Shown here: positions 16,771-55,100 of the stretch, piece by piece
Layout of the letters: each line of letters opens with the position of its first letter
Position numbering within the stretch: the first letter of the stretch is position 1
DNA from: Ruditapes philippinarum
Lineage: Eukaryota
Length of the DNA: 64,000 bases
Assembly: GCF_026571515.1 (NCBI RefSeq)
Contig: NW_026855145.1
Span: forward strand, 1 to 64,000
Direction of reading: 5' to 3'
The notes under the pieces: generated by a model
Database searches by the model: none
Told to the model about the DNA's origin: nothing
Seen by the model: only the letters and a program-made list of their open reading frames with translations
Position numbers and translations under genes: made by a program

Positions 16771-16860
16771 CATGAACAGACTCAATCAAACCGAGCCTGC
16801 ACTTTTCATTTTTAAACTGTATTTTCATTGCCTTTGAGATATTTTAATCTTTCCTTACTT
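16771..16860 (+). repeat. Fixed-end insert, family 1 (diverged)
   Basis: catgaacagactcaatcaaaccgagcctgca hairpin; second copy at ~54604. Confidence 0.65.
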
Positions 16861-21750: not shown

Positions 21751-23786
21751 CCTTTTAAGTAGGCCTTAATACTGTTTTAAGTAATATTGAACTACTTCCT
21801 TTCTAAAACAGTTCCATGTTTAATGATAAATGTTTCATTCATAAACTTATAACATGAATGTTGTTGCAATTTCAAGCGGCACGCGACAACATTTCTGCTT
21901 ATTGTCATGATTTCTGTGGATACAATTTACAGGCACGAACCTTTCTTACCGTCTCTGAAACAATAGTCATCATCTACAAACATTACATGTTCATTTATAA
22001 CACATATTTATAAAACTATTAATGTCGTAAGTATTGCATATATTTTTGTATATTTATGCAACTTAATCTAGTTTCAAGGTAGTGAAGTATTTTATTACTG
22101 GAGTTATAGGTTGGTTTCCTCTCTTATTTTGAAATTGTCCTTGAGTTACGACAATGCTTGTTTATAAAATCGTTTTTCATTGATAAAGAGGAGAATAAAA
22201 TTGATCACAGGAGAATTTTCTGAATAGGCATTGGTTAAAATGCTGTATATAATATTATATATTTAAAGCTGTGTGCTTTTTGAAAATGTGTATGTCTTCA
22301 AAATGCATTACATAAATATTGGTATAGTATAATATATATACAGTGCAAAATATTCAAGTAGTGTCGGCGTGAAATGTTTCCGTCAAGGGTGCATCACATA
22401 AAATACTTATACAGCAAAACTATTTTTTCGAGGCTAGTGTGTTAGTATAAAAGATAAACTGAAAATCAGTTACTAGAAAGGTGACAAAAATGTATCAATT
22501 TTGACAGTTATTGAATTGGCAATTATATTCTTAACAATACAGTGTAACAGCCCGTGGTCATACAATGATTAAATATAAAGTCAATAAGTCACTAATGTCT
22601 TTATTTATACAGTAAATAAAAGTTCATATAAATTTGTTACATTTTGTAAGGTTATTCATGACTACTATTAACCACTATGTACGCCACCACCGGGTAAAAA
22701 ACTCTTCCCTAACATCTAGTAACTCAACATAATATTAGAATAGTACAACTTACAAATGAAATAAGTCTGTTTCATAGAATTGTCCTTTTGATCTACATAA
22801 ACTGATAAGTTTAATGGTTTTTACGGGCAAAGCAAACCGGCAGCGGCAATAATTAATTTCTCAATATGAAAAAATAAAATTTGGTAAGCTAGTTTGTTTG
22901 ATGAAATCATTCCCTCTCTGATATTGATTCCTGCTGGTTCAAGTGTAATAATTTCGCAGAAGTCGGTATATTTCCATGATTAACGTGATTTTTGAAATGT
23001 TTCCATGAATAAGAGTAAAGCATGAGATAGAGAAAAACAAACCCAAACGGATGGCAAAATGACAGATCGAAAATTATTGAAGCTCGGTTTGATTGAAACT
23101 GTTCATTATCCAAGCTACCGCTCGCATCCAATTGCACCGGTGTATGTACAATTCAATATTTAAACAGTAAAAAGGTGAAATTTTAAATTACAAAAAAACG
23201 CAGATGTTATCATACAGTGGTTTTCATGGAACTTTCAAATGACTCAGCAATGCTGTTTGTGCCGTATGAAGGCCGTAGAATATTTTTAAGATATTTTTCT
23301 GATTGAATATTTTTGAAAGAATACTGTATAATAACCAACAGGATATGTTATTGTTTCGTATTGCATTCGTGTTTTCGCTTTGTAGAACTAGAAGACGCCC
23401 TATAACCTTGTTTATGAAATAAATATAGTCTTATATGTACACATTGAAGCCATATAATGATAATCATAGATTTTTTTTTCAAGGAACCGTAATTTATTTT
23501 AAAACTTAACTATACCAGCTAAGTATTAATATATCGACTTTTTGATCTTTTTCATTACAAAGACTCCATAATGGACTTTAAATATAGTAGTAAGATTTCA
23601 TTCTAGTTCAGCAGAAGACATGTTAATTCTATATATGACAGAAACAAAAATATAAGTTGTATTGTCTTTCTTATAATCAAAAACTAATCTGTAGCAAGCA
23701 CCTAATGTTACCACTTTCAATTATTTAAAAAAATAACAGACAGAAAATGCATTGCAAATCTCGTGATCAATTTGGTTTTACTTAAG

Positions 23787-23868
23787 ATAAAGAAAAACAG
23801 AATCCCTAAAGAAAGTCCAACACAACAAAATTGAAAATGTTGCAGGCTCGGTTTGATTGAGCCTGTTC
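23787..23868 (-). repeat. Fixed-end insert, family 1, 82 bp, copy A only
   Basis: acagaatccctaaag...caggctcggtttgattgagcctgttc; empty site taag|acacacaatttt at ~63452. Confidence 0.85.
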
Positions 23869-26875: not shown

Positions 26876-28249
26876 ACTCTTTAGAGATTTTGAGTTTTGA
26901 GTACAAAAATATATATTTTTTCTTCAAATTAAATTAGACACAGATCAGCATCAACTGATTAATATTTTTATGAACATTTTGTCTATGTGAACAATGACAC
27001 CTGTTTAATTTATAAACTTTAATAGCAGATGGGACAAAAACACAAATATGTATAAAGTGAAGAATTGATCATAACTATACTGCTATGACGCACTCGCTCT
27101 ATTTAAATAGTGGAAAACGAAATCCCTAAAAAAACGTCAACAACGTCAAAATTAGAGAAAATGTTGCAGGCTCGGTTTGATTTATTAATTCTATGTACAA
27201 TTGCCGATCATATTAATTTCAATCGATGCCATTTTGTATACATTTCATCGTTTAGTTTTAAAACAGAAATATGTATTCATATTAACATTTATCTGGTACA
27301 ACTGACAACAAATTAAGTTTATTTTTAGTAATGGAAAATAATATCACCATTTCAGATTTATGTAACATCTAAAGTTTTAGGAAGCTATTTAAGTCCTGGA
27401 ATAAAAGAAACATAACAGCAAAAAAAAAAGAAAGAAAGGAAAAGAAACAACATATAAATTAAAAAGAAATAATAAAGGGCTAATAAACTTTTATCAAAGT
27501 AAAAAATAAAAAGTCCTAGCATACTTAGTCAATTATCTTTGCATTGTTTATGCTATGAATTTTTGAAGGAAAAAAGTCTTTGTTTTGCCAATGTTTTTTT
27601 CAACTGACTTCTGATCGGCATTTTTTTATAAAATCGCCAATAAAATATTTAAACACAATATGAAAAACAAATAGTGTATAAGTGTTATGCGTGTTTTTTG
27701 TGTATGAAATAGGTCTTCGTCACTCGCTATATCATCTGCAATGAAAAGGCAATTCCAAAAAAGCCAGTATTTTTATTAAATGATTTTAGAATAAAGAACG
27801 TCTCACATTTTATCATCAAAACAATTATAAAGATACTTTAAAGTATTATTTTACATACCAAATATTTCAACACAGATCTTTCATTTAGTCTCGTATTATC
27901 AAATCTTCTAAAGGCATAACGAATGCCCTTCTTCCTGCTGTTACTTACGAGGCATTGTGAAAATCTTGTATCAAAACGTTTCATAATTGTCAGCTGTAAG
28001 TATAAAACATTGTCTTCTTTGTCTGGAACGCAATCAATATATAAGGCCCGACTTATGTATATCTATAATTGTCTGTAGTGAAAAAAAAGTAATAGCATGA
28101 TGCGAGACTCTAATGTTCAAATACCATGACCTATGGATACATAGATTGTCCGTCTCTACAAAAAATATGATCGAGGAATTGAAATGCGCTTGGGTAGCTG
28201 CTTTAAGGTGATTCAACCGGTGTTTACTACTGCCGTCCATGAATATAAG

Positions 28250-28528: not shown

Positions 28529-30834
28529 CGGTATATTGTATTGAAATATTATTACTCTTAAACGAGTTTTCACAGCAAATCTCGTTCGCTTATCTAAACT
28601 CAGTGTTTTGATAGATAACAATGTTTTTATTTATATATTTTTATATCCGTGAATTGTAATTATTTTTTGGCCGACAATATGATTCAATACATTTTATCGA
28701 AATAAAATACGTACTGTAAATACGGACCAAGTAAAAAAGTATTTTTAGGTACTGAAATATTTTATAAATATGTATCTTTTAAAATTGCAAAGCTGTTCAA
28801 CTTTTCAATATTTAAGCTGTCGATTTATCGATCTGAAATATCTATTTCGTGAGGGAGTTCTTAAGTTCATTTGCGACAGTTTGCATTGATTTTACGATAT
28901 CGATTACAAGCTTCGTATGAACATTAACTACTTTTGAAGAAAGAAACAAGTTTTCCCTAAGGAAATGTATTATCTTGTCGGCTGATAAGCCGGATTAATC
29001 AAATACTTCCCCAGACGTTCCCTTAACATTATCTTTTATATAAACGTGAAATATAATCAACATTTAACATTTCTGAGATGTTTTGTATTTTCATATTTGT
29101 TATATTGGATTTTTTTACAGTGATTTGGTCTAAAATGGATGGTCAGTAATACAATAAATAATTACGTTGATAGATTTTAGTATCAGACATAACCGCAAAC
29201 CATGGCACAATTATATATAAATGTTATTGGTAAATGTAAACCAATTTACTTTCTGTGATTTATTATTTTTGTTTCTACTATGTTTCAATATTTATCTGGG
29301 TTAAAGAGCAAGTTCTTGAAATTAAAGTTTAATAAAGAAATGCAAATAAATAAGGAGTATTATTTGAGTTTCCGACTAAAACACATTTTAAATTTGTATA
29401 TATTTAGACATTTATTTTTTCTTCATTTGAACATATTCGTGATACTGTTTTAAACCGGTATGCCTGCGAATATAGTCTCATAAAGCACTTGAAATTTTAC
29501 AACTCTTACAAATAAGCTGTTCACAGTTATAGAGCAATATACATATTCGAACAATAGATATACATACTAATCTATCTGATAACCCAGTCATACATTATAT
29601 GATAGCACATACTCATGACTTGTCAATTAATGATTCTACAAAATATCATTACCAACACTGAGAAAGGAAGTTATTTCTATCATTATCATTAAGTTAGAAC
29701 AGAACATAGTAAATAACTTGAAGTCAGCCCCATTTGAGTATGTTATCAGAACAGATGCTAATTACTAGTATACACATAAGAACGTATCATTACTTTTTTC
29801 TTAAAAAATAATCTTAATGTTTCAATAGTTTGAACATAAGGTTGATTAAAATCTCAAATATTAAAGGACAAGGCATGTTACTTCCGGATTATCAAAATTT
29901 GAGCTAGAAAGTGTTGCTGCCATGATGTGTGTTTTTTTGAAGAATCTTATATCTGATTGAATGTCCGAATTTGAGTAATAACATTCTGAATATATCATGG
30001 CAATACTTACGTAAATATATAACATTTACAAAGTTAATATCAGTATTTTATCATAGTCTGTCATTTGGTGCATGTTAAAAATAAACGTTTACAAACCTCG
30101 TGCACATCAACCATTCAATGAACAATATCACGTTAGAATAACATAATTTTCTTTTAATAAAGTATATTCGGTATGTACATTTGCAAGATCTTCGCCGACA
30201 GTAGACAGTTTCGGAATGCTATCAATATCAACTATGTAATTAAGGAATTAATATCTGTATAACGACAGCTCTGGCACTTGGCTGACAATGGTCACAATAG
30301 TCCAATCTTACATCGCTGAATAAGATATCATGAATAATTCATATTTTACCTCCTTAACTATGATTAAATGTACTGTAATGGATCCAGCAACTGATGCAAG
30401 AAATATAATATGAATGTAAATGGTCCTCCGGTAACTATTGAATAATATTATCTAGTGCTTTCAATTGTCTTTATGTATAACATTCACATATATGGTCCAA
30501 GAGTGTAACGATACCTATTTATATTTGATGAAAGATTAAAGTAAACTGGTCAATAATGGAAGGTCTCTAATACCATAAATAATTATATTGATTGAGTTGA
30601 GCATCATAAGTAGGAACATATCACATAATAATTCTAATTGCACTAATTCATTATCTCTCATTTACAGATTCAATCAAACCGAGTCTGCAATTTCTTATGT
30701 AATTTTGTTGTGAATAATGCTTCCGAGGGATCATTTTGTTTCCAGAATTTTAAACAAACAAATATACATATATTAGCAATACTTTTGTTTGGTTTTACGG
30801 CGCATTAACACAGTACGGCGAAACAGGACATGGT

Positions 30835-31310
30835 TTTTGTTGGTTTGTTTGGATTTTTACGGCACGTCAACACATAACTGGCCATATCGTGCCAAATGCT
30901 ATAATAGGCTTAAAATGTTATGTAAAACTTTGTAAATGACAATAGAAATGAGCCAATTAGATCCTAGAATACACGTTTATCTCTTTCAAATAATCAATTA
31001 TGGTTTTTGATGGAATTGTATTAAAGAGTTCTTTGAGTGAATTTACAGAATAAAATCTATTACGGATCTGTGAAAAATCATGACATTCAAGAAGAAAATG
31101 CTTGACTGTAAAATTTTCATTACAACCTACACAGAAAAGGGCATTGTCATTTGTGAGGAGATAAGAGTGGGTAATTTTAGTGTGTCCAATTCGGCATCGA
31201 AGAACTGTTTGATCACGGCGGTTTGACAGATATAGAGATGGTGACACATCAAGAGATGGGTTTATATCGTGAAGTTTATTAAAAACGGCATTGTCCCAAT
31301 TGGTTTTGCC
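30835..31310 (-). mobile_element. 5'-truncated I/Nimb-clade LINE 3' end
   Basis: RDQTVLRCRIGHTKITHSYLL...C..C....TVKHFLLEC C-terminal CCHC region; 3' end ggcacgatatggcc...gtgccgtaaaaatcc(aaac)n. Confidence 0.9.
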
Positions 31311-31966
31311 GTTTGTTTTGGCTTAACGGCGACACTGAATACAGCGCCGCTCACTATAATGAGTAGGCATGTAGCTAGAGGGTTGGTACAAGTGATTTAA
31401 TTAAAAAATAATACAAGTTAATTTGCTTTAAGTGACAATCTGATATGTTGGTGGGCTTGAAAAATGCGAATGGCATTAACGTTGGCTCCGGTGATTTTCG
31501 GACTAGATCCTTGTTTTATCAGGCCTTTTGGTGTAACTTTTGTCGCGTTTTATTACTTTATTGTGACGTTGTCACGATTATTTTAGGCAGGCTGTAATGG
31601 AATTCTATTACGTCATACAACTTCCGTGCTCAAATGAGATGTGCATAGACCGTATCGATATTCCTCAGTGCGTTTTTGCTACTCGTAGAGTGCAGTCGTA
31701 TTTCTACAGTAGCTGACCGTTTTCCGTGACGGATTCGTTCGTTCACGATTTAGACAATTGTTGTTCTAGTCAGTCTTACAAATTATTGCTATTCGTAGCA
31801 ATACTTTTATTATTTTATTGTTATTAGTAACAATTTGATACAATTTTATAATATTTGTTTGCAAATATTGTTTATTTGCCTTTGTTGTATTTTTTACGAC
31901 AAGACATTTTACGACATACCCACGTGCGTTAGTAGAGTTGCTTTACGAAGTCGCGTGGTAAGCAAA

Positions 31967-34579
31967 ATGGCAGATAAAGAAGTCCAGTTAAAAAACACGG
32001 GGAAAAAGACCATAAAAGTCTCCCAACAAAATGAAACAACCCCAGTAACCACATCTAGTTCGTCTAGTCATTCGTCCATGTTAATTTCAAGTGACAAGGC
32101 TGCTACTAGCAGCAGTAGCGGTAAACAACCTACGAAACAGTTGCCCACCAAGGAGGGTGGGGTAACGAAAAAAGTGTTACTGATATTAAAGGAAATGAAT
32201 GCAAATCTCAATGCACAAGCCACACGCTTGGAAAAACAAGAACAAAAATTACAGTCCTTCACTGAACAGTTGACTGATCAAGATTACAGTGAATATAATG
32301 AGTACAATGACTATGAATGCCAAGAACAATATGATGATGATGATGCTTGTGTCGACGTAGCCCAGTCGGTATTACAGGTGGGGTAATAGACAGACACAAC
32401 AAATGCAAATCTGAAATATCCAAGATATTTATTAAACAATATATATAAACACAATATAACTATATAACACAACTATAATATGTAATGGTCAGATATGAAG
32501 TGCCATTAACAAATATAAGATAAGGTTGAATGAGTGATACAGGTATGTAATAACTACATGTACAATTTCAGGTAAGTATTGTAAATATTCCAGGTAAGTA
32601 TTGTGAATATATCTCTCTGTTATCTATCAAAAACCTCTATATATTAACCAATAATGACATTCTGTAATAATCTAATAATTTAAGTAATAAGTCAGAGATT
32701 ACTAACCTGAAATATCCAAGATATTTATTAAACAATATATAAACACAATATAAATATATAACACAACTATAATATGTAATGGTCAGATATGAAGTGCAAT
32801 GGAGCATCACACAACATACCCGAACATAGCATATCAAGTTTACGGGTGACAGGTTAGTAACAATGACAGATAAGAATAATAGAAATATAGAGAGATATAA
32901 CGGTATAGGATCAGGGGTCAAATAATATATAACACATTAAGATACAGTTAATATATTTTATTTGAAATGTATAACAAAACATAAGGCAATGTACATTTTA
33001 TATAAATTTCTATCCTGCGACATACTCCTCCAGGTTCGTTTAAAAGGCTCCTGACTTTTCTGTACGTCTCCCTTCAATTAAAAAAAACATATATACATAT
33101 TATATACAAAGTTATATAACACATTTGCTAAATATAAGTAATTGATAGCAAAACATAAGTTGCACACGCTGGCTGGGCTACAACTCAATATTTCTGTGTA
33201 CAATACCTGAGGTAATTATAATTGAGCAAGAATTAATGAATTCAACATCAAACTCGAAGCTTGATGATGCAATTGATAGATATCCGTTAGCTCCTATAGA
33301 CACGAGACGTGGAACCATAGACAGAGCTACATACAATTGTAACATGACAAGAAGGTGTGCCAGGTAAGTATGTTGCATATTGAGTATATCGAGGTAAGTA
33401 TTGTGAATATATCTCTCTGTTATCTATCAAAAACCTCTTTATATTAACCAATAATGACATTCTGTAATAATCTAATAATTCAAGTAATAAGTCAGAGATT
33501 ACTAACCTGAAATATCCAAGATATTTATTAAACAATATATATAAACACAATATAACTATATAACACAACTATAATATGTAATGGTCAGATATGAAGTGCA
33601 ACGGAGCATCACACAACATACCCGAACATAGCATATCAAGTTTACGGGTGACAGGTTAGTAACAATGACAGATAAGAATAATAGAAATATAGAGAGAGAT
33701 ATAACGGTATAGGATCAGGGGTCAAATAATATATAACACATTAAGATACAGTTAATATACTTTATTTGACATGTATAACAAAACATAAGGCAATGTACAT
33801 TTTATATAAATTTCTATCCTGCGACACTTGTATATCTGAACAAGCATCCATTCCTTCAAGTGCTAAGAAAAATTCTGGGGGAGGTATATTTAGTTCATTA
33901 GTGAACAAATTCCAGCAAGAAGACGCTGTTGATAGTGAAGTCAATGATGACCTAGCACATTTTGTCAACATGTCGTTTAGAAGTGGTTTGACGGAAGATA
34001 AACTGTCAGATATAGTGAAGGACATACACAGGCCACAGAATTGTGAGGCGTTGGTTTAAACCAGAGTCAACCAGGGAATCTGGAGACTACTGAAAAATGC
34101 ATACACAGGCCGACGACAAAACCGAATGCAGATAATTCAGATTTAATCGTCAAAGCCCACATCCAACATTGTCAAGCTTATTGACAAAAAATGCTAACTC
34201 TTTAGACCCTTGTGATATGGACTGGGAGTTCAAACTCTATTGCGTTGCTCGGACAGGCTAAATAAAATTTGATAAATATTCGTCGGAAAGTACTCCATAA
34301 GTCGGATCTTGATCCGAAGTACCAATTATTGGCTTCAGCATCTCTTCCATTCACTGATAACTTATATGGTGACGATACAGACGTCAACAAGAATGTGAAG
34401 GAGATCAATGACCTGAACAAGATTGGTCGTAGTCTTGGTTCGGGATTCCCTCGGGGCAACTATCGTGGCTATGTTCAGCAACGCCCTCATCCTTTTACAG
34501 CGAGGGTTCCGTGGTGAAAGGTTGGGTCGGCCGGACATATAGGCAGCTTCAAAAATCCAGGATGGCGCCCAAGAAGTAG
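31967..34579 (+). pseudogene. DIRS gag-like ORF, split by an LTR element
   Basis: MADKEV...DDDDAC joins ISEQASIP in frame once 32350-33826 and one TSD copy are removed; IHRPQNCEAL..RVN..IW and LYGDD motifs; later frameshifts. Confidence 0.8.
32350..33826 (-). mobile_element. Non-autonomous LTR element (4-bp TSD, Gypsy-like)
   Basis: TSD cttg (32346-32349 / 33827-33830); minus-strand ends tgtcgc...tcgaca; direct repeat 32590-33021 vs 33392-33826; PPT-like cctggaggagta before the downstream LTR. Confidence 0.8.
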
Positions 34580-34875
34580 AGCGGTTAAGTTACTTTTTAA
34601 AGCCTGGTAGAATTTGAAGTGATTTTATTGAAAATTGGAGAAAAAAAACCAGTGATGATTCAGTGTTGGACATTGTCAACCCATTTACATTTAATTTTAA
34701 AGAGGTTTTGTAACATTTTAATTTTTCCGTTTGTTGGGCCCTTTCTTTGGGGATTCTTGTTTTATCTATTTTTTTAATCCCATTTAAAAAATGTTTTTCT
34801 CATTAAAACCATTTACACCCGAAGAAGGATAAACTTTGATAGGTAAAGAAAATTTAGAAAAATTATTAAAAATGG

Positions 34876-36481
34876 GTGTTATTAACAGAAGTTGAAATAC
34901 ATCCTGAGGAATATATTTCTCCAATTTTCATACGTCCTAAAAAGAATGGTGAATATAGAATGATTTTAAATTTGAAAGAATTAAATGAATTTATTGAATA
35001 TCATCATTTTAAAATGGACACATTTGAATCTGTATTAAAATTAGTCAAACCTGGCTGTTATTTTTGCATCAATTGATTTGCGTCATGCCTTACTATTCTG
35101 TTCCAATTGCAACAGAACACAAAATTTAAGCTAAGATTTCAGAAGTCAGGTAAAATCTACCAGTAACGAAGCTCTTCCAAATGGTATTTCTTGTGCGCCA
35201 AAACAGTTTACTAGGCTCATGAAGCCAGTTTATGCATCTCTACGCATGCTTGGACATAAGAATTCTGGGTACATAGATGACTCATTGTTAATGGCAGACA
35301 CAATCTCAGAATGTCGAGAAAATGTGTCCGACACTGTCATTTAATGACTGATGTTGGCTTTATGATACATGAAAAAAAATCAGTACTTGAACCCATTCAA
35401 AAAATTACCTTTCTCGTAACGATATTGATTCAAAAGAAATGATTGTAACTTTGCCGTTAGAAAAAGTAAATGGAATTGTCCAAGCATGTGTAGATCTGCA
35501 AAAACCGTAATCATGCAAAGATTAGGGAAGTTGCTAGAGTTTTGGGTCTCCTGGTTTCCACTTTCTCTGCAGTTGAGTTTGCTCCTTTGTATTATCGTGA
35601 TACAGAGAGGGAAAAAATCATTGCTTTAAAAGAAAATAGAGGAGATTATGAGTCCACCATGATGGTAACTAAATCAATTAAAGTTGAATTACAATGGTGG
35701 ATTGATAATCTTTCTCAACAAAAGCGGAGAATTTCTCATGGAAACCCAAGCATTGTTATCACTTGCGATGCCTCGATCCAAGGCTGGGGATCAGTGTGTG
35801 AAAAATTAGAAAATGGTGTGTCGATGGAGTGACCAGGAGGCCCAAAACCATATCAATTTCCTGGAACTGCTTGCTGTAAGCTATGCATTAAAATCCTTTT
35901 GCAAAACCACAACTAATAGCCATGTTCAGATAAGATCAGACAATACATGTGCAATCTCCTATATTAAGAACATGGGAGGAAAAATACAGAATTTAAACAG
36001 TCTTGCTAGACAAATCTGGTTGTGGTGTTGTGAAAGAAATATATGGCTTTCAGCAACGCATGTTCCTGGAATAGACAATGAGGCTGATGCTAGTTCGAGA
36101 AAATTCAATGACAATACTGAATGGATGCTAAATGATGGGTTGTTTTCAAAATTGGCAGACATATTTGGGCAGCCGGAAGTAGATTTATTTGCTTCCAGGT
36201 TAAACAAACAGTTGCCAAGATATGTCTCTTGGAAACCAGACCCGGAAGCAGAAGCTGTAGATGCTTTTTCATTAAACTGGAAAGGAAAATTTATTTATGC
36301 TTTTCCTCCTTTCAGTCTGATTGGTCGTCTGGTGCAGAAGGTACTGCTAGACGAAGCAGAGATGGTCCTGGTGGCGCCTGTTTGGGTAACTCAGAACTGG
36401 TACACAGCAGTTTTGGAAATGTTAATAGACATCCCACTAATCATCAAAGTAAGTCGCAACACACTACGAATTCCGGCTTGA
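34876..36481 (+). pseudogene. DIRS pol: reverse transcriptase, RNase H and methyltransferase-like domain
   Basis: ISPIFIRPKKNGEYRMILNLK, LPNGISCAP, GYIDD (~35268); ITCDASIQGWG, HINFLELLAV, RSDNTCA, HVPGIDNEAD; DLFASRLN and YAFPPF. Frameshifted. Confidence 0.9.
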
Positions 36482-37013
36482 ACAAAATTCACCCTCTTGT
36501 AAACAAACTCCATTTGATGGCATGTCATATATCAGGAAATCATTCGAAAGCAGAGAACTTTCGGAAAAGTCTGTCGAAATCATCATGGCGTCATGGAGAC
36601 GCTCCACTAAGAAGCAATATTCATGTTACATCAACAAATGGGTTCTTTTTCTGTCGTAAAAGGCAAAGTAATATATTTCAAACCTCTATAGACTTTGTGA
36701 TAGAATTTCTTACAGAACTTTTTAATAAGGGTTATAGTTATGAAACTTTGAATTCAGCAAGGAGTGCATTGTCAATGCTTTGTGAATCACATGAAGGGTA
36801 TAATGTTGGCTCACACCCGTTAGTTGTGAGATACATGACTGGTGTGTATAACTTAAGACCTACAAGATCAAAGTATACAGAAACGTGGGATGTTTCAAAA
36901 CTTCTGAGTCACCTGAAGACGCTGCCACCAGTGAATAATTTGACATTGAAAATGTTAAGCTATAAGTTAGCAACACTTATTGTTTTGACTCAGGCAAGTC
37001 GTTCTCACTCTGT

Positions 37014-37135
37014 AAAATATGATAAACAAGATCGACAAGGAAAGGCGGCATTCAATGAACGCAGCCCCCATCCGACCCAGCAACAAGCGTCAGCGGCAAG
37101 GAGCCCAGGAGGACTCCAAAGAAAAACAGGACAGG
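37014..37135 (-). repeat. Fixed-end insert, family 2, inside the YR gene
   Basis: aaaatatgataaacaagatcgacaaggaaaggcggcattcaatgaacgc interrupts RSHSV..LTLEGM. Confidence 0.8.
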
Positions 37136-37368
37136 GCACAATTAACTTTAGAAGGTATGAAGAAGGATGAGAATTCCTTTATTTTGTATTATTGTGGGCT
37201 TTTGAAACAATGTCGTAAGGGTAAACGTAACCCTGTTGTAAATTGCAAGAAGTATACTCCAGATAGGAGGTTGTGTGTATATAGTACATTAGAAGAATAC
37301 ATATCGCGTACTAAACATTTGCGTGGAGAAGAAAAAAGGTTATTCATAAGTTACATTAAACCATACAA

Positions 37369-37731
37369 TAGATAAAATACAGAATCCCTAAAGAAAGCCC
37401 AACACGGCAAAATTGAAAATGTTGCAGGCTCGGTTTGATTGAGCCTGTTCATGGACGGTAATGGAAATTGCAAGTTACCGTCCACGCCCCCTAGCACCGG
37501 CTTAAGCAGAATTCAACATTTAAACACTATAATGGTGAAATTTGAATTTAGAAACATCCGCAGATGTGTTCATACGGCGGTTATCATGGAACCTTCAATG
37601 TGACACAGTAGTGTCATTCCATGAAAAGCGGCGTATGGTCCCCAAGTAAAAGAATGCGTGTGCCCTAAACGAGAAAACAATGGGCGGAACTAAATAAAAT
37701 GGAATTTTGAAAGGGGATCTGAGGTTATGAA
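37369..37731 (-). repeat. Fixed-end insert, family 1 (longest copy), inside the YR gene
   Basis: Interrupts KPY|KFVVS; matches 38081-38207 and the inverted copy 39009-39230. Confidence 0.9.
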
Positions 37732-38080
37732 GTTTGTTGTCTCGACAACTATCAGTAGGTGGATAAAATGTGTAATGAGAGATGCAGGTATTGACGTTGA
37801 TAAATATAAAACACATAGTGCCAGGGGAGCAGTAACCTCCAAGGCAAAGCAGAGTGGAGTTCCGCTGAATGAGATCATGAAAGTTGCTGGATGGGCAACA
37901 GAGAGGACATTTGCTCAGTTTTATGAGAAGCCACTGGAAACAGAGGTATCCTTCCAGTCCGCAGTATTACAGTAACATGTCAGATACAGGTAAAAAATAT
38001 ACATACATTACTGTTGAAATATTTACATGTGTTATAGTAAGTGACTCGTAGCCCATAAAAGTTATGTCCTCTTGTGTTGA

Positions 38081-38207
38081 ATAAAATAGATAAATACAGA
38101 ATCCCTAAAGAAAGCCCAACAAGGCAAAATTGAAAATGTTGCAGGCTCGGTTTGATTGAGCCTGTTCATGGACGGTACTGGAAAGTGCAAGTTACCGTCC
38201 ACGCCCC
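38081..38207 (-). repeat. Fixed-end insert, family 1, abutting the DIRS ICR
   Basis: Near-identical to 37371-37490. Confidence 0.9.
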
Positions 38208-38325
38208 ATTTGAGCACGGAAGTTGTATGACGTAATAGAATTCCCCCAAACAAACTAGACTTACCTGTAAGTTGACGTTGGGTTGGAATTCTATGTAGTC
38301 ATATAACAACTGGAGGGATCAAATG
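38207..38325. repeat. DIRS internal complementary repeat
   Basis: First part is the reverse complement of 31601-31636, second part of 38496-38562 with a further match into the right ITR; halves join at gaatt. Confidence 0.95.
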
Positions 38326-38675
38326 CCCTCCCACTCCACCCAGAAAACCATTTAATGTTACAGTTAAAAATATTAATACCTAAGGAAAGTAATATTTTTT
38401 GATCCCGTTCTGGGACATAACTTTTCTGTTATCGCTTTGAAGACTGAGGAATATCGATACGGTCTATGCACATCTCATTTGATCCCTCCAGTTGTTATAT
38501 GACTACATAGAATTCCAACCCAACGTCAACTTACAGGTAAGTCTAGTTTGTTTGGGGGAATTATATGACGTTAGTTATAAAACACTTTTATAGATAAAAC
38601 GTTGAATGTACACAGAAGACAAACTCTGGACCATTCTCGAACTTTTGCATTGTGATAAAAAATTCTAGTTAAAAG

Positions 38676-39862
38676 TTTTGTTTGTTTAGATTTTTACGGC
38701 ACGTCAACAGATAACTAGCCATATCGTGCCGATTGCTATAATAGGCTTAAAATATTATGTAAAACTTTGTAAATAACAATAGAAATGAGCCAATTTGATC
38801 CTTGAATACAAGTTTATCTCTTTCATATAATCAATTATGTTTTTGATGGAATTGTATTAAAGAGTTCTTTGAGTGAAAGGGGCATTGTCATTTGTAAGGA
38901 GATAAGAATGTGTAATTTTAGTGTGTCCAATTCGGCATCGAAGAAGAACTGTTTGATCACGGCGGTTTGACAGACATAGAGACGGTGACACATCAAGAGA
39001 TGGGTTTATGATAACCGCCGTATGAACACATCTGCGGATGTTTCTAAATTCAAAATTTTACTATTTCATGTTTAAATGTTGAATTCTGCTTATGCCGGTG
39101 CTAGGGGGCGTGGATTGTACCTTGCACGTTCCAGTACCGTCCATGAACAAGCTCAATCAAACCGAGCCTGCAATATTTTCAATTTTGCCGTGTTGGGCTT
39201 TCTTTAGGGATTCTGTATTTATCTATATTATATCGTAAAGTTTATTAAAAACGGCATTGTCCCAATTTGCTTTCCATTCAGATGATACGAGTTTATTTAT
39301 AGCCGGTCTAAAACCACAAGCAGGTAACAAAAAGTCAGTTTTTTGAAAAACAGAAAGCGAGTCAGAAAATATCACAAATGTATCGTGGGGTATGCTGTGC
39401 TATGTATGACAATGCTAAATCGATAGCTTTTGTTTCAGCAGAAAAAAATTGATGCATTATCTGGTAACCTCATACTAGATGTACACAGTCGCACCTACTT
39501 TGCAACCTTCTTTTGAACCGTCCGTATAAATATGTATAAAATCTTCATGTTCTTCCTTAATTGCTAGAAACTTCTCTTTGAAATATTCAGGTGAATTTGA
39601 TGACTTTTTTATATTTGAAAGGTTTATATTTATTTTCGGGGAACTATAAGTCCAAGGTGGAACATCCTCATTGTCATTTTGAAGGATACTGTCTGGATTA
39701 ATTTTAAGTTTATCTAAATCATCTTTTAAACGAAGGCCTAACGGTTTAATTTCCTTTGGTTTGTTAACAAATTTTTCAGTATAACTTGGCTTGAAAATAA
39801 TATTTTTAGCTGGATTTTTGCTATTAGATGAAATTCTAGTTGCATATTGAAGTGATAGCTTT
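38676..39862 (-). mobile_element. I/Nimb-clade LINE 3' fragment with RNase H and internal deletions
   Basis: IHIYTDGSK, FSAETKAIDLAL, IFSDS; same 3' end as 30835-31310; interrupts an old paralogue of ~14290. Confidence 0.9.
39009..39230 (+). repeat. Fixed-end insert, family 1, inside the LINE
   Basis: Inverted copy of 37371-37588; uninterrupted site gggtttatatcg at ~31258. Confidence 0.9.
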
Positions 39863-42265: not shown

Positions 42266-43502
42266 TTATTATGTCTCCCCCACCTCGGGGGGAGACATAT
42301 TGTTTTTGCCCTGTCCGTCCGTCAGTCCGTCCGTCCGTCAGTCCGTCCGTCCATTCTTCGTTTCCGGACGATAACTAGAGTTCCTTTTGACCTACAGCTC
42401 TCAAACTTCATAGGATGAATGGTCTTATTGAGCAGATGATCCCTATTGTTTTTGGGGTCAGTAGTTCAAAGGTCAAGGTCACAGTGACCGTTGGTCAATT
42501 TCTCGTTTCCGGATGATAACTAGAGTTCCTTTTGACCTACAGCCCTCAAACTTCATAGGATGATTGGTCTTATAGAGCTGATGATCCCTATTGTTTTTTG
42601 GGGTCAGTAGGTCAAAGGTCAAGGTCACACTGACCGTTGGTCAATTTCTCGTTTCCGGATGATAACTAGAGTTCCTTTAGACCTACAGACCTCAAACTTC
42701 ATAGGATGATTGGTCTTATTGAGCAGATGATCCCTATTGTTTTTGGGGTCAGTAGTTCAAAGGTCAAGGTCACAGTGACCGTTGGTCAATTTCTTGTTTC
42801 CGGATGATAACTAGAGTTCCTTTTGACCTACAGCCCTCAAACTTCATAGGATGATTGGTCTTATAGAGCAGATGATCCCTATTGTTTTTGGGGTCAGTAG
42901 GTCAAAGGTCAAGGTCACAGTGACCGTTGGTCAATTTCTCATTTCCGGATGATAACTAGAGTTCCTTTTGACCTACAACCCTCAAACTGGGGGGAGACAT
43001 ATTGTTTTTGCCCTGTCCGTCCGTCAGTCCGTCCGTCAGTCCGTCCGTCCATTCTTCGTTTCCGGACGATAACTAGAGTTCCTTTTGACCTACAGCTCTC
43101 AAACTTCATAGGATGAATGGTCTTATTGAGCAGATGATCCCTATTGTTTTTGGGGTCAGTAGTTCAAAGGTCAAGGTCACAGTGACCGTTGGTCAATTTC
43201 TCGTTTCATTTGTGAAACTATATATGATATGACCATCAAGTGCAATTTCGTTTGACGCCCGCCTGCCATACGCTGATTGAATAACCAGGATTTTCAAAAT
43301 TGAATACCTGGTTAAAAACAAACAGTTTAGGAAGCATCTTCTCATACAACCTTAACAATAGAAACCATCCATAGACAGCCTTCATTGAAGTGACTACCGG
43401 GTATTTACATTATCTTATCTCCATTTCCATTCCTGTTTCCATTCACAGTTATTCTCAGCAGTGGGGGAGACATGCGCTTTTTTACAAAAGCATCCTCTAG
43501 TT
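42266..43502 (+). mobile_element. Helentron-associated MITE with 146-bp tandem repeats
   Basis: atgtctccccca / tgggggagacat IR, (gtcc)n, units with ggtcaaggtcac, 3' hairpin gctttt..aaaagc then ctagtt. Confidence 0.9.
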
Positions 43503-46115: not shown

Positions 46116-49100
46116 ATTGTTTCAGTTTATTTCTCTTAATTTTTTCACTCAGATTTTAGTTATAAAAGTCCTTGATTTTCAGAAGAAAAAAACGTCCCTT
46201 CATCAAGGCTAAAAATGAATATTACCCTCAGTAATTGATAAAACTTTCACGATATTCAATAAAATCTTTTAGAAACACAAAATTGCATATTCATTATTGT
46301 TTTACTTTCAGGTTATTTATTTTAATACATGTCATACGGCTAGCCTCAGCAGTGCATAAAGGCTGGTCGTACGTGACTCACATACGGCAAGAACTTTTGG
46401 CTAGCGGTACGGGTCCATACGTCTTATCTATTTAACTCTATGAACAGAAATTGATCATTTTGATTGTTAGGTTATCAAAATTAAAATTGATATTATTTGC
46501 ATTTGCTGAAAAAGATCAGTTTTTCCAGTTGGTGGTATGTAAATGTATCTTAATACTGCATCTTTTTAGTTTTAGGCCTTCAATTACTTAATACGTGAAA
46601 CTATAAAATTTTAGTCTAAGAAAACACCAATATATTTATGTTAGCTTAAAATGACTAGAAAATTTTCAACCAAGTATAACAATATGCTTTAAGTTACAAA
46701 TAATTATGTGTAAATTAAACAATTATTACTTATGAAATCAAAACAATGCATAGGAATGGTTTATTTTTTCAACCCATCTTTTACTACAAGGTTCTTGTTG
46801 CTTAAATACATATAGTCAGCAGGTTGACAATCATAAAACAAAAAAATCAAAACAAAGGCGGCCCAATCTAATACAAGGAATTCAAAGAAAAGTAGATTTT
46901 TGATGGAATGAAAAAGCTCAATGAGTACTTCTATGTTGGTCAAATCTCAATAGTATATTTAAGAAAGGTTTAAAAAAATGCAGACATTGTAATCTTACTG
47001 ACACTGGGGTATCAGCCTAACAGTTTGGTAAAAGTTTTTCATGCAGATACAGCTTATATATTTATCATGAAACATCTACTAATGGATGTTTACCAATATT
47101 GTTTAAATAAAAGCCCTAGGGTTAAAATTTATCCCGCCCCGAGGGCCTATATACAGGTGAGCGATTTCTGGGCCATCATGGCCCTTTTGTTCTTATTATA
47201 GCGTATGAACTTATTCCTTCAATCATAACGGTAAAATGATGTCATCTTAATAACGCAATTCATTCATAAAAGGCGCGCGGCAATGACGTCATTTAAAGCA
47301 CGCGACTTATCTTACATGTAGGGTATAAGTCATGTTTTTCTAGCACGGGGGAAACGGTAGATAATCTTGTCTGATAGCCAAGAAATAAACTTCCAATACT
47401 TACAAATCTATTTCATCGAAACTTTATATGTGGATGAATATTGATGAATTCAACCTGCACCCCTCATTTTCAGGTCAAAAGGGCAAAGTCACTGGGACTT
47501 GCGGTTGCGTTCATTGAACGCCGTCTTTCCTTGTTGATCTTGTTTATCATATTTTGTGATAACCAAACATAAAACTAGCCATTAAATCAGCATTTACTGA
47601 GGATTATAAGATTTTTAAGGTTAAGAACGCAGTTAGAAATGTGGGCAGAGCCTGTTGAGTGAAATGTCAAGGTCGATGTGACTTTTATTCAAATGATCTA
47701 TTTTTGTAGAAAATATGTAGTTTACTATCCAGATATGCACTGAGAAAACTGGAGTGCACTGCTTCTCTGACAGCTCGATCTTACTTGTCTGGTTGCCATC
47801 CTTTAACCATTCATAAAATTGCTTAGAATATGTGAGCATTTGAATGAAATTTTCTGTTAGAATAGAGTCAAAACTGCAGGACTGGAGATATAAGCTTGCA
47901 TATCTCTTAATCTTCTAAACTACTACGTCGGCAGCTTTCAGTATGCACAAAAGCTGAAAAGCATGAAATGTTATTAAATTGCCTTCTTTTTGTATTATTT
48001 TAAAAGAAATGTTATTGCAACATTTCAATGAAAAATAATGAAATCTTAGCCAACTGTCTGTACTTGGTTAAACTTTCCATGCATTAATAAGTTCTACCTT
48101 TACCATGGGCTTCATACACTTCTTTGTACAAATTTAAGTCCATGATCTTTGCAAGTCACTTCACTGAGGCCTCTTCTGCAATCCCCGGTCCATTATTTAA
48201 TTTTTTATCCTTTAAGATTCAAATGATGTAATGGCTAGCCTATCCCCTCAAGTTCAATCAACTTACATGTGCTATTGGTTTTTGCCAATACATAGACCAT
48301 GACCTTAACAAGTGACATAAATGGAGTATCAATTTACCCCAAGTTGTTTCCCTTTTTAGGTTATAAAACTTAATATAGGTTTCTTAGATATAGATTTTCA
48401 TTTTATAATTCATGTTGCCATCCCTTCCACATAATCTACATCTTTTAGTTTTATATGGTACTTTGACATGTTTTCAGCTGGATTTGACAGTTCTAATTTT
48501 AGACATGGAAGAGCAACCGACTTGAGATTTTTTTAAGTGAAATATTTACTGCTTAAGATATTTCTGAAACTTAAGAAAAATCTTGGCTAAGTTTTATTGA
48601 ACGCCGCATTTCCTTGTTGATCTTGTTTATCATATTTTTACTTAAGGCAGTTTCTGAATATGACTTAAGCTTAGATTTTTTAGCTAAGATTTTTTTTTCA
48701 ACTTATGGTTTTACTGAAGAAATAACTAAAGACCAGTTGTGAATACGGCCCCAGAGTATTAGTTACCATAAAGGTGACAAAAATGTATCTAATTAGACCG
48801 TTACTGAATAGGCAATCATTCTGTACAATAGAGTGTAACAGCCCGTGGTCATACAATGATTAACTGAAAATATACTTGCTCGTTATATGATAAAAGAGTC
48901 AATAAGTCACTTATGTATTTATATGTATTTGTTCATTAAGGAAATAAAAGGTCTATATAACATTGTAATTTTTTGCAAGCTCATTTAAGACTGGCATTGT
49001 TATTAACGGTGTTAACCCCCATGTACGCTAGCACCGGGTTAAACTGTTCCCTAACATCTAGTGACACACTTCCCTGACTGGCCCAAGAGGAATTTATCAA

Positions 49101-52100
49101 CACAATATGACAATAATATAACTTACTGATGAAATAAGTCTGTTTTATAGAATTCTTCTCATACATGAATTGATAGTTGTTTTTTCCGGACAAAGCATGG
49201 TGTTCAAGGGTCCTTGGATGCGTGAGAGATGTTTCCAGAACCATTCATTTGCATATTTAATCAAAATGAGATTGCAATTCTCACTATCAAACTCTATTTT
49301 TACTGTTCTTCATCCAATTATCATCTCCGCCTTTATCTCCGTTTCTTTTTTAATCTGTTCATTTACGATAATAATACGTGCGACATTTTTCCAATTCTCT
49401 AGCACTGGTTCAATCTTTAATACCAACAAAATGAATTCGATGAACCAGAAAACACTAAACACTCTGAGAACAAATTATGTTTTATCTCATGTTGTAGCCC
49501 TTGTTATATCTTTCCGACAAACACAAAGGCAAGACAAATTCACGCCAGAGCATATGATAATTATTGGGAGAACACAAAATAGAGAAAATAATAATATATT
49601 TTATTTAATGAGGGATATTGGAACAATGTGATAAATAGCAACAAACAGAAATGAGCTCAAATTCAACTAACTCTACAATTATGTCATTCTGAATGATCTT
49701 CAACAAAGGGAACAGTTTAACGTGTTAAACTTCTAAATACCTACCCTACATGTATAAGTTTAGTAATTTTCATATGCATGAAGTCAAGCATATTCAGTGT
49801 GCCACACGATTTTTTGTAATATGACAGAAAATATAGCTGTGCATAAACCACTCGATTCAAATCTTTTAAAGTCAGGTTAGTTTTTTTCCTTAATTAAATA
49901 TAACTAAATAAGGCTTAAATAAGTATATGTAAATTCACTTTTGATATAAGTATGACAGCTTTGCCCGTTAAACGAAATTATTAGTACCGGGAGAAACATA
50001 ATTTGCCCATTTTAGGACATAACCCGACCAAAATCTTAACATTTGTACATGATATTACGTAGACAAACTATATGTTTGAACAATGTATTTAACATCAGAA
50101 ACTGTGAATTAAATCACATGGAAAGATGGAAGGAAGGAAGGAAGGAAGGGGACAGTTTGAACTAATCCATAAATGCCTGATTGCTGCTATAAAATTTGAG
50201 ATTTCTGGCAATAAATATGTCACGGTGTATCATATTCACTCTTTGGTGATTAATAGGATGATTGTATTTTGTCATTTAACATGTTTAAAGAGTTCAAATA
50301 CTCCACCAAATTCAAGTATGAGATATATATATATGGAAGTATTTCTTTTTATTTTGTAAAATGATAATTTGTAAATGACAAGGACGCTTTGTTGCAACAA
50401 CGTTATCATTGACTCGTACATATCATTTTACCTTGATCATATTAATATATACTGCCACAATAAGCTGTCTTATTCAAAATATATAAAATTGACTCACATG
50501 CATAGTGGTTATGAATGGCGATTATAATGAATTTGATAAAGAGCAACTTCAATAACGTCAATATATAAAACGTATGTTCAAACTAATTGAATTCTTCGAT
50601 CTTGGACCAAAATGTTTTCTTCACTCTAATTTAAGAACCCCTTGCTCATATATTATTCAACAACATAATTAACAAATGGTTAATAATTACATTATACTTC
50701 GGCATTAATTTAGTAAACAATGATCAACACACATGAAACCGATAATAACATACTTGTGTATGGGTTCACTTGTCGAAGAACATGTCAAGCTATTGTTTTT
50801 ACCAACTCAAAGGCCATCGCTTTCGTTATTGATTTGATTGAAGTTACGTTTTAGGACATAAACTGAAATAATAACAACACTTTCAGATTATATGCTGATG
50901 CACTTTGGTATGTTCATAAAGAAAATGTGGTATGTTCATCAAGAAAAGGCAGCATTCAATGAAAAAATCAGAATTCATTTAATAATTAAAGGTGTCTTAA
51001 AGGCAATAAATCTATATCTTATCAAATATTTTTATAAAATATATCAACAGTAAAATTACAATGGTTCCATTACTATATTGTTGATTCCCGAAAAAGTTGT
51101 AACATATAATGTCTCTGTTATTTAACACACATGAATATTGTATGTTAACAGAATAAAATGTTCCGGAACAAAATATTATTTGCTATTTTAAGTAGGGGTT
51201 TAATCGTTTAGCAATAATGTTGTGCATGCGTCAATCGCTTTTAAATATTTATTTCTTACAAGTGTTTTGGAATTATTCTTTTGGAAATTTCAAACAATAT
51301 TTTTGCAGCAGATATATAGCTTTATACACTTTAAATATGAAAGAAAAAATAAATAAATACGATTACTTGTCTCTGGTATAATTTACAACTCATTTTTATT
51401 AGAAATTTATGTTATTTCATTTTGAGAATTTTGTTAACTAAACATGCAATAGCACACTGTATATTGAAGTAGAATCAATGATTTCTAGATATCCTTCAAT
51501 TAAAACTTTAATTGCCCCTCATTTAATATACATTACCGAAAATGCTGGAATGGAATTCTCATAAAAACAAATTAAAAAGATCTTTAAGCAGATAACTTCA
51601 GCAAATTGAACCATAATAAATGACCTGTGATTAATTAATTATATTTGAAGTTCATTCAATATAAATATAAGAACACTGAAGTGAAGTACGGGGCAACTTT
51701 TTACAGCTGCCACACAGCACTTTACAACTGCTGTTGTGAAGTTTAAAAATCTGGACCAAGTGTGATCCCTCGTAATTTGTTTATGGTTTTAAATTAAAGA
51801 TATGATGTTCAAATTAAGATTTATCAATATTGTAGGTTCCAAAAAGCATTATTTATAAAGTTATTACCGAATATAACATTTTATGTAAATAAAGGGAGGT
51901 AATAAAAATTGATTTTCTTTAAAGTTTAAGTTAAATTTTACAATAAGAAATAAATGCATATATTTTAATGATTACATATAATATGCACACATATTTGCAG
52001 AACATATTTTACATATTCTTCGATGTTTGAAAATTGTTTTATTTGCATAATTATGCACATATAATTTCACTTAGTGTGGTTTATCTCTTTGATCACAACA

Positions 52101-55100
52101 TACAGGATCTTTAATATTTTAACAATACTTTACAATTTAATAGATGAAACGTTGAATTTACAGAGAAGGCAAATTATGTATCATTCTCGAACCTTTTGCA
52201 TTGTGACAAAAATTCTAGTTGAAAGAAGTACATTTTTTGTAATGAATTGACTTTATCTTGTCCAGATTAACATAGTAAAGTGCGTCCTATTTTCATGTGA
52301 GATGGTTTATACCGCCCCGGGCATGTCTTCATTTAAACGATTAAACAATTTAAGAAGTGATAGTATATCTTTGTCCGCTCTAACTGTTTTAATCCAAGCA
52401 TTTCTTCAATCCAATAATTGAGTCTCATTTTATTGAAAACTTTTGAGATTGTGTTCAACGGATATATATATAACAGATGTTTTTTCTATGAAAACTGCGT
52501 AAAATGTACATAGTTACATGTACACTTTGCAAAATTATTTAAAAGTGTGAGCAAACTTAAGATATATCTAGAGTAGAAACATTTAGACTATTTTGCATAT
52601 GGTCATGTCAGAAAATGCGCGGTATGGATCCTTTAAATTAGCAGAATTTTATGAAAAAATGAAGTAAGGCGATATTACCTTCAGAACAATACAACATTAC
52701 AATAATTTTCCCGGGAATAGAGTAAATAAATGTCGGGGGATGAGGTCAGCAGAAAAAATATCATACAATGGAAAAGACTGACGTGAAGAACAATTAAGTA
52801 TTAAAAACAACTAAATCCAATAGAACACTTAGTCACTCTGGTGAAAACCCTACGTTGTAATTTCAAAATGTTAGAGGCTATATCAAGAACAGAATGGTGA
52901 CTTTTTGGATTTTTGGAATTTGTACCACGACACACGCTTATTTAATGTACGGTTGTCTATGTAAAATTATCACGCTTTATTGAAAAACGTAAACAGAAAC
53001 AATAAAAGATTTGCATGTGATGTCTTCAAATGTGTACACAAACAGAAATGTCACAGGTTTATTTAGAATTAGATACTAATGTGTACTGTAATGAGCTCTA
53101 CATCATAAATGGTGATCAGATCGTAAACCCTATTATAAAACTAGACTGGCATACAATTTTGATAAAGAAACTGAAGCAATAAGAGCGAGAACTTAGTTTA
53201 TGCTCCTTGATTTTCTCGTCTTCGAATTGATTAGAAATATGACGTACCAGTTCGTTAGAAGAGATCACCTTTCCGCAAAATTGTTTTATATAATATTTTA
53301 CGTTGATAACTTTAATACAATACATTGTAAGTACGGCCACAATTAGCTGTCCCAGTCAAACTATAAATCTAAAATAGATTCACACGCGTTGTTTCCATGA
53401 ATGACGACTATTATTATTTAAAAAGTGCAAAATCATTAATATCATATTATAAACGTGTGTTCTAAAGCCTTACAATTTTTTTCCACAAGTTCCTGCTCTG
53501 ATCATGTTCACATCTTTGTCATTCATATTCGTTTTTCTCGCTTTTGAAATAAAATCCTTAATTGAAAATTCATTATTTTAATGAAGGTTCGATGCGTTTA
53601 TTTAACATAATGTTATTTACAAAACTCAACACAGTTTTTTTCCAGATATTTTAGTTTCTTTTACACAATCATTATGTAATTAAATTATATCGATCCTCAA
53701 TAATAATGCTATGTTAAGAATAGAGAATTCAAATTCAGGATTTCGACCATAAACACAAAATATATGTCGAACAAAAAGAACAAATAACAAGTCCAGTTAC
53801 AAGTATTCCAAATACCCCGTTAAAATTTTGATTCTTATAATATTAGTTTATCAGATTTTGTGAAATACAAAACGTTTCTATATTATTTTGCAAGGTTATG
53901 ACATTGGCATCTTTACAACAAATTTGGATGCTAATTTATGTTTTACGTATTTGACATTTGTCTAATGTTATCAAACTATATTTCGTAATAATGACAGACC
54001 AAAGTCAAAATACAGCAATCTATGCTGATGAAGTTACAATTTTTGACATTTGTTAAAGAAGTTAGATAACACCATAATAAGTGTCAAACTATTTTTAAAA
54101 CTACACATTAATATCAGTACCCTTTATACATTTATAATTCGAAACCGTAATTATTCAACACCATAATTAACAAATGGTTATTAATTACATTAAATATACT
54201 GTAACATTTAACTGTCATTAATTTTGTAAACATACTATGTTCAACCCACATGATGCCGATGATTGCATATTTGTATATGGATACACATTTCGAAGAAAGT
54301 GTGAAGCTATTGTTTTGACCAACTCAAAGACCGTCGCCTTGGTTATTGATTTGATTGAAGTTTCGTTTACGGCCATCCAGTGAAATACTAACAGAATTCA
54401 GTTCTGTGCTGTCTTTAAAGATTCTGTGTTTCATTATTAAAGTTGAAAAATAGAAACATATGGTGATATATATGGAGTTCTGTACAACAAAATAATGAAA
54501 GGAATATGAAATACGATAATTCTGGAAAAAGAGTGAAAAACCTCCTGGAAAAAAGGGAAAAGCTCGAAAGATCTTGCTTAGTTAAATGATTGAGCGCAGT
54601 GTCTCATGAACAGACTCAATCAAACCGAGCCTGCACTTTTCATTTTTAAACTGTATTTTCATTGCCTTTGAGATATTTTAATCTTTCCTTACTTTTAAAT
54701 AAACCCTTATTTCTTTTTGGTGTTGTCAATATTATTCTGACCTTCTGAGGACATTGGATGCGTGAGAGATGTTTCCACAACCATTCATTAGCATATCAAA
54801 TCAAACAGAGATTGCAATTATCCCTATCAAACTTCATTTCTATTGCTCTTCAGCCAATTTCTGTCTCAACCTTTATCTCCGTTACTTTTTTAATATGTTC
54901 ATTTACGACAATAAAACGTGCAACACTTTACCAATCCTCTAGCACTGGTTCAATCTTTATTACCAATAAATTTAATTCGATGAACCAGAAAACACTGAAA
55001 ACACTGAGAATATATTATATAAATAACACATGTGTTTTGGATAACAGTAAAAATAACCCCAAGGAAAAAACTGTTACCCGAGGCGCTAGCGAGGGATGAT

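Follow-up and report, generated by a model that had tools for sequence, protein, structure and literature searches.

Organization of the window and copies of the family

The window, by which we mean the whole 64-kb stretch of DNA analysed, is AT-rich (28–40% GC) and packed with transposon debris, and about 20 kb is present twice at 93–98% identity. At 37369–37731 lies a truncated copy of a repeat, comprising the 3′ 363 nt of a unit of ~625 nt. This copy splits the tyrosine-recombinase gene of a DIRS element: the flanks, translated separately, read on as recombinase, and the right flank gives a weak Phage_integrase match (E 3e-4). The DIRS element itself (31599–38571) is decayed, with remains of RT/RNase H, Dam-like and recombinase sequences and with terminal and internal complementary repeats at 31599–31669, 38207–38325 and 38443–38571; three copies of the ~625-nt family and one of a second family are inserted in it. 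Elsewhere the window holds a Crypton-like, 308-codon DUF3504/tyrosine-recombinase frame at 10313–11239 (Pfam E 4e-22), and GTCC-microsatellite repeats with internal tandems of 145–160 nt at 1027–1965 and 42313–43207, which we take to resemble Helentron-associated elements.

A preliminary description of this DNA listed ten copies of the family plus copy-B duplicates, all of which were recovered by BLAST and by profile, in both orientations (Table 1). The profile, built from eight copies, returned 17 matches in the window at E < 1 and none in the reversed window; the copies at 20779 and 34712 are short and score weakly in it (E 0.03 and 0.08). A common terminus had also been described, and indeed eight of the ten listed copies reach the shared end or stop no more than 4 nt from it; the copy at 16771 stops past the hairpin, and that at 30664 is too decayed for its end to be judged. 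We confirmed that the window copies lack poly(A), a microsatellite tail and TIRs. The old end piece at 5579–5653 scores 56, a value reached by 0 of 1000 shuffles, and its paralogs score less well, the one at 17867–17940 being equalled by 23 and the one at 55683–55760 by 7 of 1000 shuffles.

Table 1. Copies and parts of the ~625-nt family located in the window.
Feature	Position	Strand	Remarks
5′ start and first part of unit	5420–5578	−	Older subfamily with deletion; paralogs from 17866 and 55682; part at 49706
Old 75-nt 3′ end piece	5579–5653	−	Abuts the unit's start, giving a pseudo-LTR-like partial tandem
Hairpin-only remnant	16771–16813	+	Duplicate 54605–54647
40-nt terminal stub, weak	20771–20810	+	Duplicate 58972–59012
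Old 5′-truncated copy	23023–23250	−	Duplicate near 61878–62069
Old copy of the unit's 5′ start	23243–23363	+	Head-to-head with the 23023 copy; duplicate near 62040–62146; tblastn E 0.001, 4e-6
82-nt copy	23787–23868	−	1-bp duplication; stops 3–4 nt short of the fixed end; no counterpart in copy B (63453)
5′-truncated copy	27104–27182	−	BLAST and profile
Decayed copy with compensated hairpin pair	30664–30712	+	Pattern and profile
Terminal stub	34709–34775	+	Within the DIRS element that holds the 37369 copy; BLAST and profile
Young 5′-truncated copy	37369–37731	−	In DIRS tyrosine-recombinase gene; 2-bp duplication (AA on +)
Hairpin 1	37425–37447	−	7-bp stem, AC-rich loop, ~55 nt from fixed end
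Hairpin 2	37450–37486	−	11–12 bp stem; three pairs changed on both sides
5′-truncated copy	38083–38208	−	Beside DIRS internal complementary region; BLAST and profile
5′-truncated copy	39010–39227	+	TTAT duplication 39006–39009, 39228–39231; empty paralogous site 31160–31330

The fixed end and insertion sites

The shared end of the family is T-rich and tail-less, and fuzzy by up to 4 nt. Three pairs of filled and empty sites bear out the earlier report of 1–4 bp junction overlaps, with duplications of 1–4 bp and overlaps of 1–3 nt. The empty 37369 site occurs in X1 and X5 contigs and in three X22 reads, which skip the 363 nt with a 2-letter overlap; at the far junction of this copy there is a 3-nt overlap, as judged with the run-on consensus of public reads and contigs. 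The pair formed by the 39009 copy and its empty paralogous site is new, and combines a 4-bp duplication with a 2-nt overlap at the far end, and the third pair is the 23787 copy and its empty counterpart in copy B (Table 1). The duplications lie at T-rich sites, none of the three being (TA)n or a microsatellite and one being TT. Overlaps at the fixed end are 2–3 nt, and could indicate pairing-assisted priming, which the anole enzyme discussed below does not need. The claim that the family was recently active is supported in part, by these empty sites and by near-identical copies.

Prematurely terminated rolling-circle products had been offered as one origin of such copies, and a non-autonomous element of the Helitron or HLE2 kind would fit with one fixed end beside hairpins, a T-run terminus, one TT target, the tandems and the better folding of the plus strand. 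Passages of PMC11417382, however, describe Helitrons as making no duplication, HLE1 as bearing TC...CTRR and HLE2 as having short terminal inverted repeats and inserting at T|T, whereas here the duplications are of 1, 2 and 4 bp, the fixed end varies, TC/CTRR termini are lacking, TT is found at one of three sites, and the end-to-end match of the window copy is not kept in L007. We regard this origin as extremely improbable.

A second fixed end, at 37719, was considered and rejected. Although 21,658 X22 reads break there, they do so at GATC, with loose letters that begin GATC; GATCGATC is also found at the other end, and 37719 lies outside the top six loose ends of X1 and X5. X22 is recorded as RNA-seq yet behaves like a DNA Hi-C library made with a GATC cutter, and it is for this reason that the 37719 end was discarded. 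Its GATC junctions presumably reflect the DpnII/MboI Hi-C pattern, despite the RNA record.

Extent of the unit

Behind 37732, 3,424 X22 reads and 339 (X1) and 283 (X5) contigs share one run-on sequence. An L007 alignment that stops at 37731 had suggested a full length of 363 nt, a reading we rejected as reads, contigs, L007 and L008 all run on. Young copies could be followed further in translation. A two-sequence profile of one open frame matched 114 proteins in JGI/ENA protein sets; the ten of these that were checked are singletons on contigs of 1–4 kb, and since the sequence shows neither codon bias nor a Pfam match (see below), the 114 proteins are translated copies of a non-coding repeat. 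Reading them in three frames lengthens the unit by ~88 codons (~264 nt), to an estimated total of ~625 nt, the upstream 264 nt of young copies being known from translations alone. The extension stops at one point, the fixed start of the unit. Thus the variable far side of the preliminary description holds in so far as truncations are scattered, but it is not open-ended, and a fixed start lies ~264 nt beyond 37731.

A search with the near-end frame gave 183 matches, 120 of them listed, of which 112 new copies were analysed. Among these listed matches, 96 of the 112 have the end visible with at least 12 residues behind it, placed within a few codons. Behind the end, 82 of these 96 listed copies have no family match, and 14 have family sequence. 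The 44 visible 5′ breaks among the listed matches fall between unit positions −192 and +257, i.e. they are spread over 450 nt (pile-ups at 0–4 and 242–245 were ignored as they are located on reference edges). The ~625-nt family has subfamilies. P0120 is an internally deleted tandem form of the unit, and read and contig data contain an internal duplication variant at 37605–37483.

The start is found in several contexts. It is directly preceded by the unit's own fixed end in P0007, P0026, P0040 and P0079 (the first two of which also served as references), and by unrelated sequence in P0067. Where copies were chosen by the end alone, the end runs straight into the start in ten of the 96 among the matches listed, a share biased by ORF calling. 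A junction query returned seven more copies, four joined to the end (P0115, P0116, P0120 and P0121), two with the start past unrelated flank and one broken inside the start; the query contained part of the end, so that this set is biased. In P0144, P0152, P0178 and P0197 a short start piece is all that is visible, stop codons hiding its end. The window DNA shows the same join in old copies, with the 75-nt end piece meeting the start at 5578 (5653–5420); window copies have no 30–40 bp tail. Inverted pieces outside the internal palindrome occur in five of the 114 proteins, of which P0008 and P0087 abut the start side head-to-head, and the window has a comparable head-to-head pair, a plus-strand start at ~23243 against the minus-strand copy 23023–23250. 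The other 25 of the 30 inverted peptide matches were dropped because they are located on the internal palindrome.

The window copies had previously been taken for the ends of an unidentified mobile element, with the suggestion that its longest copies be examined for an ORF. The family is indeed mobile, but the pieces belong to a unit that is short and non-coding throughout, and not to the ends of a long element. Where the longest copies of a LINE 3′ UTR would lead into an APE/RLE-RT ORF, the extension stops at a start, with either the unit's own end or unrelated flank in front of it. A related explanation takes them for the 3′ end, or pseudo-LTR, of an autonomous Penelope-like element with its long copies unseen. 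It has to contend with P0007, P0026, P0067, P0079 and P0119, in each of which the start is followed by the body of the short unit and no ORF intervenes (body sequence served to find the first four, which are hence biased for this test). P0120 is a shorter, deleted version of the ~625-nt unit, and no RT fragment adjoins any end in a Pfam scan of 119 peptides. In favour of this explanation, the extent was drawn from reads, contigs and translations rather than from an assembly; we judge it quite unlikely.

Hairpins, strand and coding capacity

We confirmed both of the hairpins described earlier, as well as the compensated pair at 30665. The hairpin word has seven matches, against none in 100 shuffles, and hairpin 1 falls within the best-conserved 30-nt block in a comparison with L007a, a copy not found through the hairpin pattern (27 of 30 identical; 16–25 elsewhere). 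Across 13 copies, 88.7% of cells pair as opposed to 23–32% for slid partners, and in four pairs, of which three belong to hairpin 2, both partners have changed. Pairing is kept, but covariation, which had been proposed as a check, is marginal, 25–53 of 500 shuffles (5–10%) scoring as high; four non-window rows of the alignment were found by a pattern containing hairpin 1. The idea that the hairpin is the recognition signal of the enzyme is plausible.

The RNA strand would be the one with the fixed end 3′ (the minus strand of the window at 37369). This polarity is drawn from the anatomy of the junctions and from the orientation of the Naiad match described below; folds do not settle the strand, the plus strand folding better (z −4.0 vs −2.8) and G–U versus A–C changes splitting 3:2. 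The sequencing libraries used are unstranded. We found no coding frame on either strand, with mismatches distributed 5/7/7 by codon position and no codon bias, and none of the 119 later-scanned peptides matches Pfam. There is no hammerhead core in four copies, on both strands (the upstream 264 nt being represented by an old copy), and no match to an Rfam ribozyme. HDV-like, hammerhead, twister and SECIS identities were rejected, as no topology is conserved between copies and Rfam gives no match; nor was SECIS-like pairing seen in the hairpin.

These features also bear on whether the family could be a head-less SINE-like element moved by an ordinary LINE of the CR1, L2, RTE or I type, the hairpins then being the LINE 3′ stem-loop. 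LINEs likewise give 5′ truncation, short duplications and 5′ microhomology (passages of PMC2912911), and bivalve SINEs use several LINE partners (parts of PMC11481361). The family, however, has no tail and no exact Pol III A or B box in the 363 nt, and internal T4+ runs are present on the proposed RNA strand. Such runs argue against Pol III transcription of that strand. By eye, part 1 of the two-part PMC10294476 SINE file contains no bivalve SINE resembling the family; moreover, joins of end to start at an exact point and inverted copies that overlap are features of Penelope-like elements, and the start resembles that of a Naiad. A SINE-like origin is thus very unlikely.

Probable relationship to Naiad and other Penelope-like elements

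We consider it probable that this non-coding, ~625-nt family is a non-autonomous Penelope-like element, copied in trans by an RT/GIY-YIG endonuclease of the Naiad type. It combines one fixed end, scattered breaks opposite, head-to-tail partial tandems and the lack of a hammerhead (363 nt tested). The preliminary description had proposed 5′-truncated TPRT products of a tail-less Penelope-like element, and here that proposal is supported and narrowed to the Naiad type.

The link to Naiad lies in the start. Window positions 5578–5536 match nt 2–44 of the Naiad_Scon (razor clam) consensus at 32 of 43 nt, ungapped and aligned by eye, for which the binomial tail is 4e-10 before correction for the ~12 starts compared. 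Peptides of young copies, compared by eye with hand translations of this stretch in two frames, agree at 12 of 19 (P0007) and 10 of 19 (P0026) residues. A lone 55-nt piece of the start motif at 51685–51738 (−), with a duplicate near 13790, likewise comes close to the Naiad_Scon start; unrelated sequence flanks it on either side, and it is possibly a tail or another dependant family. The 3′ end of the unit has no match to the listed bivalve Naiad ends beyond loose motif likeness. Its order of purine run, hairpin, CAGGYTCAATC and GCCTG recalls a mussel Naiad 3′ motif, which is a lead only, and the mussel motif is absent from the window, so that Mytilus galloprovincialis is probably not the host. 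The loop of the mussel and clam Naiad 3′ UTR motif may resemble that of twister ribozymes. Mussel and clam Naiad 3′ UTRs share this conserved structured motif in the supplement of PMC8557442 (S5), in parts of which the motif can be seen; passages of the paper do not mention it.

A second tail-less insert family, located at 37012–37150 (−) in the DIRS gene and also at 3290–3340, 4406–4450, 47505–47555 and 48597–48641, resembles the Naiad_Mmer 3′ end by eye, and because of this likeness we suggest that Naiad-type elements have probably been active in the present host. The second family is also found within or beside copies of the ~625-nt family in P0003, P0022 and P0060. As for an autonomous partner, no long protein carrying the unit's start was found, in what is a weak test.

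According to passages of Craig et al. (2021; PMC8557442), Naiad insertions are 5′-truncated, form partial tandems, often have an inverted truncated copy 5′ and lack hammerheads, and bivalve genomes are dominated by Naiads, the consensus sequences of which, in parts of the supplement, end T-rich and tail-less. In so far as these excerpts describe them, Naiad_Scon and Naiad_Mmer resemble the present family in truncation, tandems, inverted neighbour, T-rich tail-less end, absence of a hammerhead and very high copy number. The clam Naiads differ in having an EN-RT ORF and a length of 3.3–4.4 kb, whereas the present unit is ~0.6 kb without an ORF and has another 3′ region. The hallmark of autonomous Naiads, an ORF with N-terminal GIY-YIG and C-terminal RT, is missing from the unit, in which the start leads into the body.

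Non-autonomous Penelope-like elements are already known, and the family would be a variant of these, not a new element class. The closest in kind are the MRC1-type elements of Chlamys, non-coding, pseudo-LTR-forming, head-to-tail Penelope-like dependants (passages of PMC8557442). The Chlamys elements described there share 3′ ends with their autonomous partners; the present family has an animal host, its apparent link to an autonomous family is at the 5′ start and not the 3′ end, and none of its three sites is a microsatellite target. Animal non-LTR retrozymes are likewise structured and non-coding units of small size, for which the use of Penelope-like enzymes has been proposed (parts of PMC7229834; bioRxiv 10.64898/2026.07.22.740005). 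As portrayed in those parts, they carry a type I hammerhead in 150–450 bp units arranged in multimer arrays, whereas the present unit is longer, hammerhead-less and found mostly as dispersed truncated copies; retrozymes are further characterized by a monomeric circular RNA. The Poseidon element PAc of the green anole, as excerpts of PMC11167929 present it, is similar in its AT-rich targets, its AC-rich stem-loop near the end, and an end explainable as an internal RT start. PAc, however, is an autonomous element with a hammerhead, and its start lies within the AC-rich loop, while the present end is ~55 nt downstream of the loop. Searches of the full-text literature turned up neither a non-autonomous Naiad nor this family, which may sit in Dfam or Repbase as an unknown or Penelope-labelled repeat. 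An exact-word search of published libraries (a weak test, covering ~354,000 of 2.5 million and 377,000 of 4.1 million characters in two bivalve files) gave no match.

A possible mode of copying

How hammerhead-less Penelope-like elements define their ends and form partial tandems is posed as an open question in passages of PMC8557442, and, as far as excerpts of PMC11167929 go, a single such enzyme has been examined in vitro. In those excerpts the purified anole protein introduces nicks in AT-rich DNA and initiates reverse transcription at set positions within its RNA, whatever lies 3′, and hammerhead mutants of the element still insert. By analogy, tandem or read-through copies of the present family would give RNA longer than one unit, which a Naiad-type partner protein may bind, probably via the two hairpins (55–120 nt upstream of the end). 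The protein would then nick AT-rich DNA and begin reverse transcription at a set internal point, the end/start junction. Most runs would abort, their products being joined through overlaps of 1–3 nt, and runs continuing beyond the start into the preceding copy would produce the partial tandems by which the family persists. Because reverse transcription would start internally, as for the anole element in vitro, neither a ribozyme cut nor a tail would be needed; such a start would account for the truncations and partial tandems, and for an end that is sharp and tail-less although the RNA is not cleaved.

A different route, which we think unlikely, is replication via self-processed linear or circular RNA, with the hairpins and start forming an undescribed self-cleaving or RT-positioning motif that replaces the hammerhead. 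Were it true, the hairpins would meet the start only across a tandem or circle junction, the family would be a retrozyme-like replicon with a new ribozyme class, and the motifs of loose likeness in the 3′ UTRs of mussel and clam Naiads would be further instances of this device. No discrete RNA ends appear in two runs recorded as RNA, one of them DNA-like, as probed with a stretch that lacks the start.

If the family is instead a passenger of a Naiad-type enzyme, a 0.6-kb non-coding sequence that out-replicates most host repeats must carry all of the cis signals, making it a minimal template, and the unit offers a small test substrate for how copying starts without a hammerhead ribozyme.

Abundance in public sequence data

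The 37369–37731 stretch is matched by 82,200 contigs in X1 and 60,073 in X5, which are not copy numbers, and by 110,819 of 12.9 million X22 reads (0.86%), from which a rough hand estimate gives 10^4 to 10^5 copies. In X24, 1,273 of 7.4 million reads match, 88% of which continue into dissimilar sequence, and the reads share no start or end points. Public runs that match the stretch come mostly from one organism, plus mollusc, fish and echinoderm metagenomes, so that the host is probably a mollusc; the Naiad-type ends suggest a clam. Related copies with 74–87% identity occur in four metagenome contigs. Longer DNA copies were sought in viral contigs, GTDB and phages, which yielded nothing or the seed word alone. 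The family gives a name to a large class of 'unknown' repeats, and accounts for at least 230 spurious metagenome 'hypothetical proteins' that are translations of the ~625-nt repeat; one, P0231, is labelled a YbaN-family membrane protein.

Several minor observations concern these public copies. L007 holds two copies tail-to-tail (506–890 and 1403–1618), ~510 bp apart, as does L008, and L007 is without ~50 nt that L008 carries beside the far end of the longer copy. At variant places, read on the window plus strand, G>A exceeds C>T by 28:11 in X1, 12:5 in X5 and 30:15 in X22, in an insert with 83 G and 68 C.
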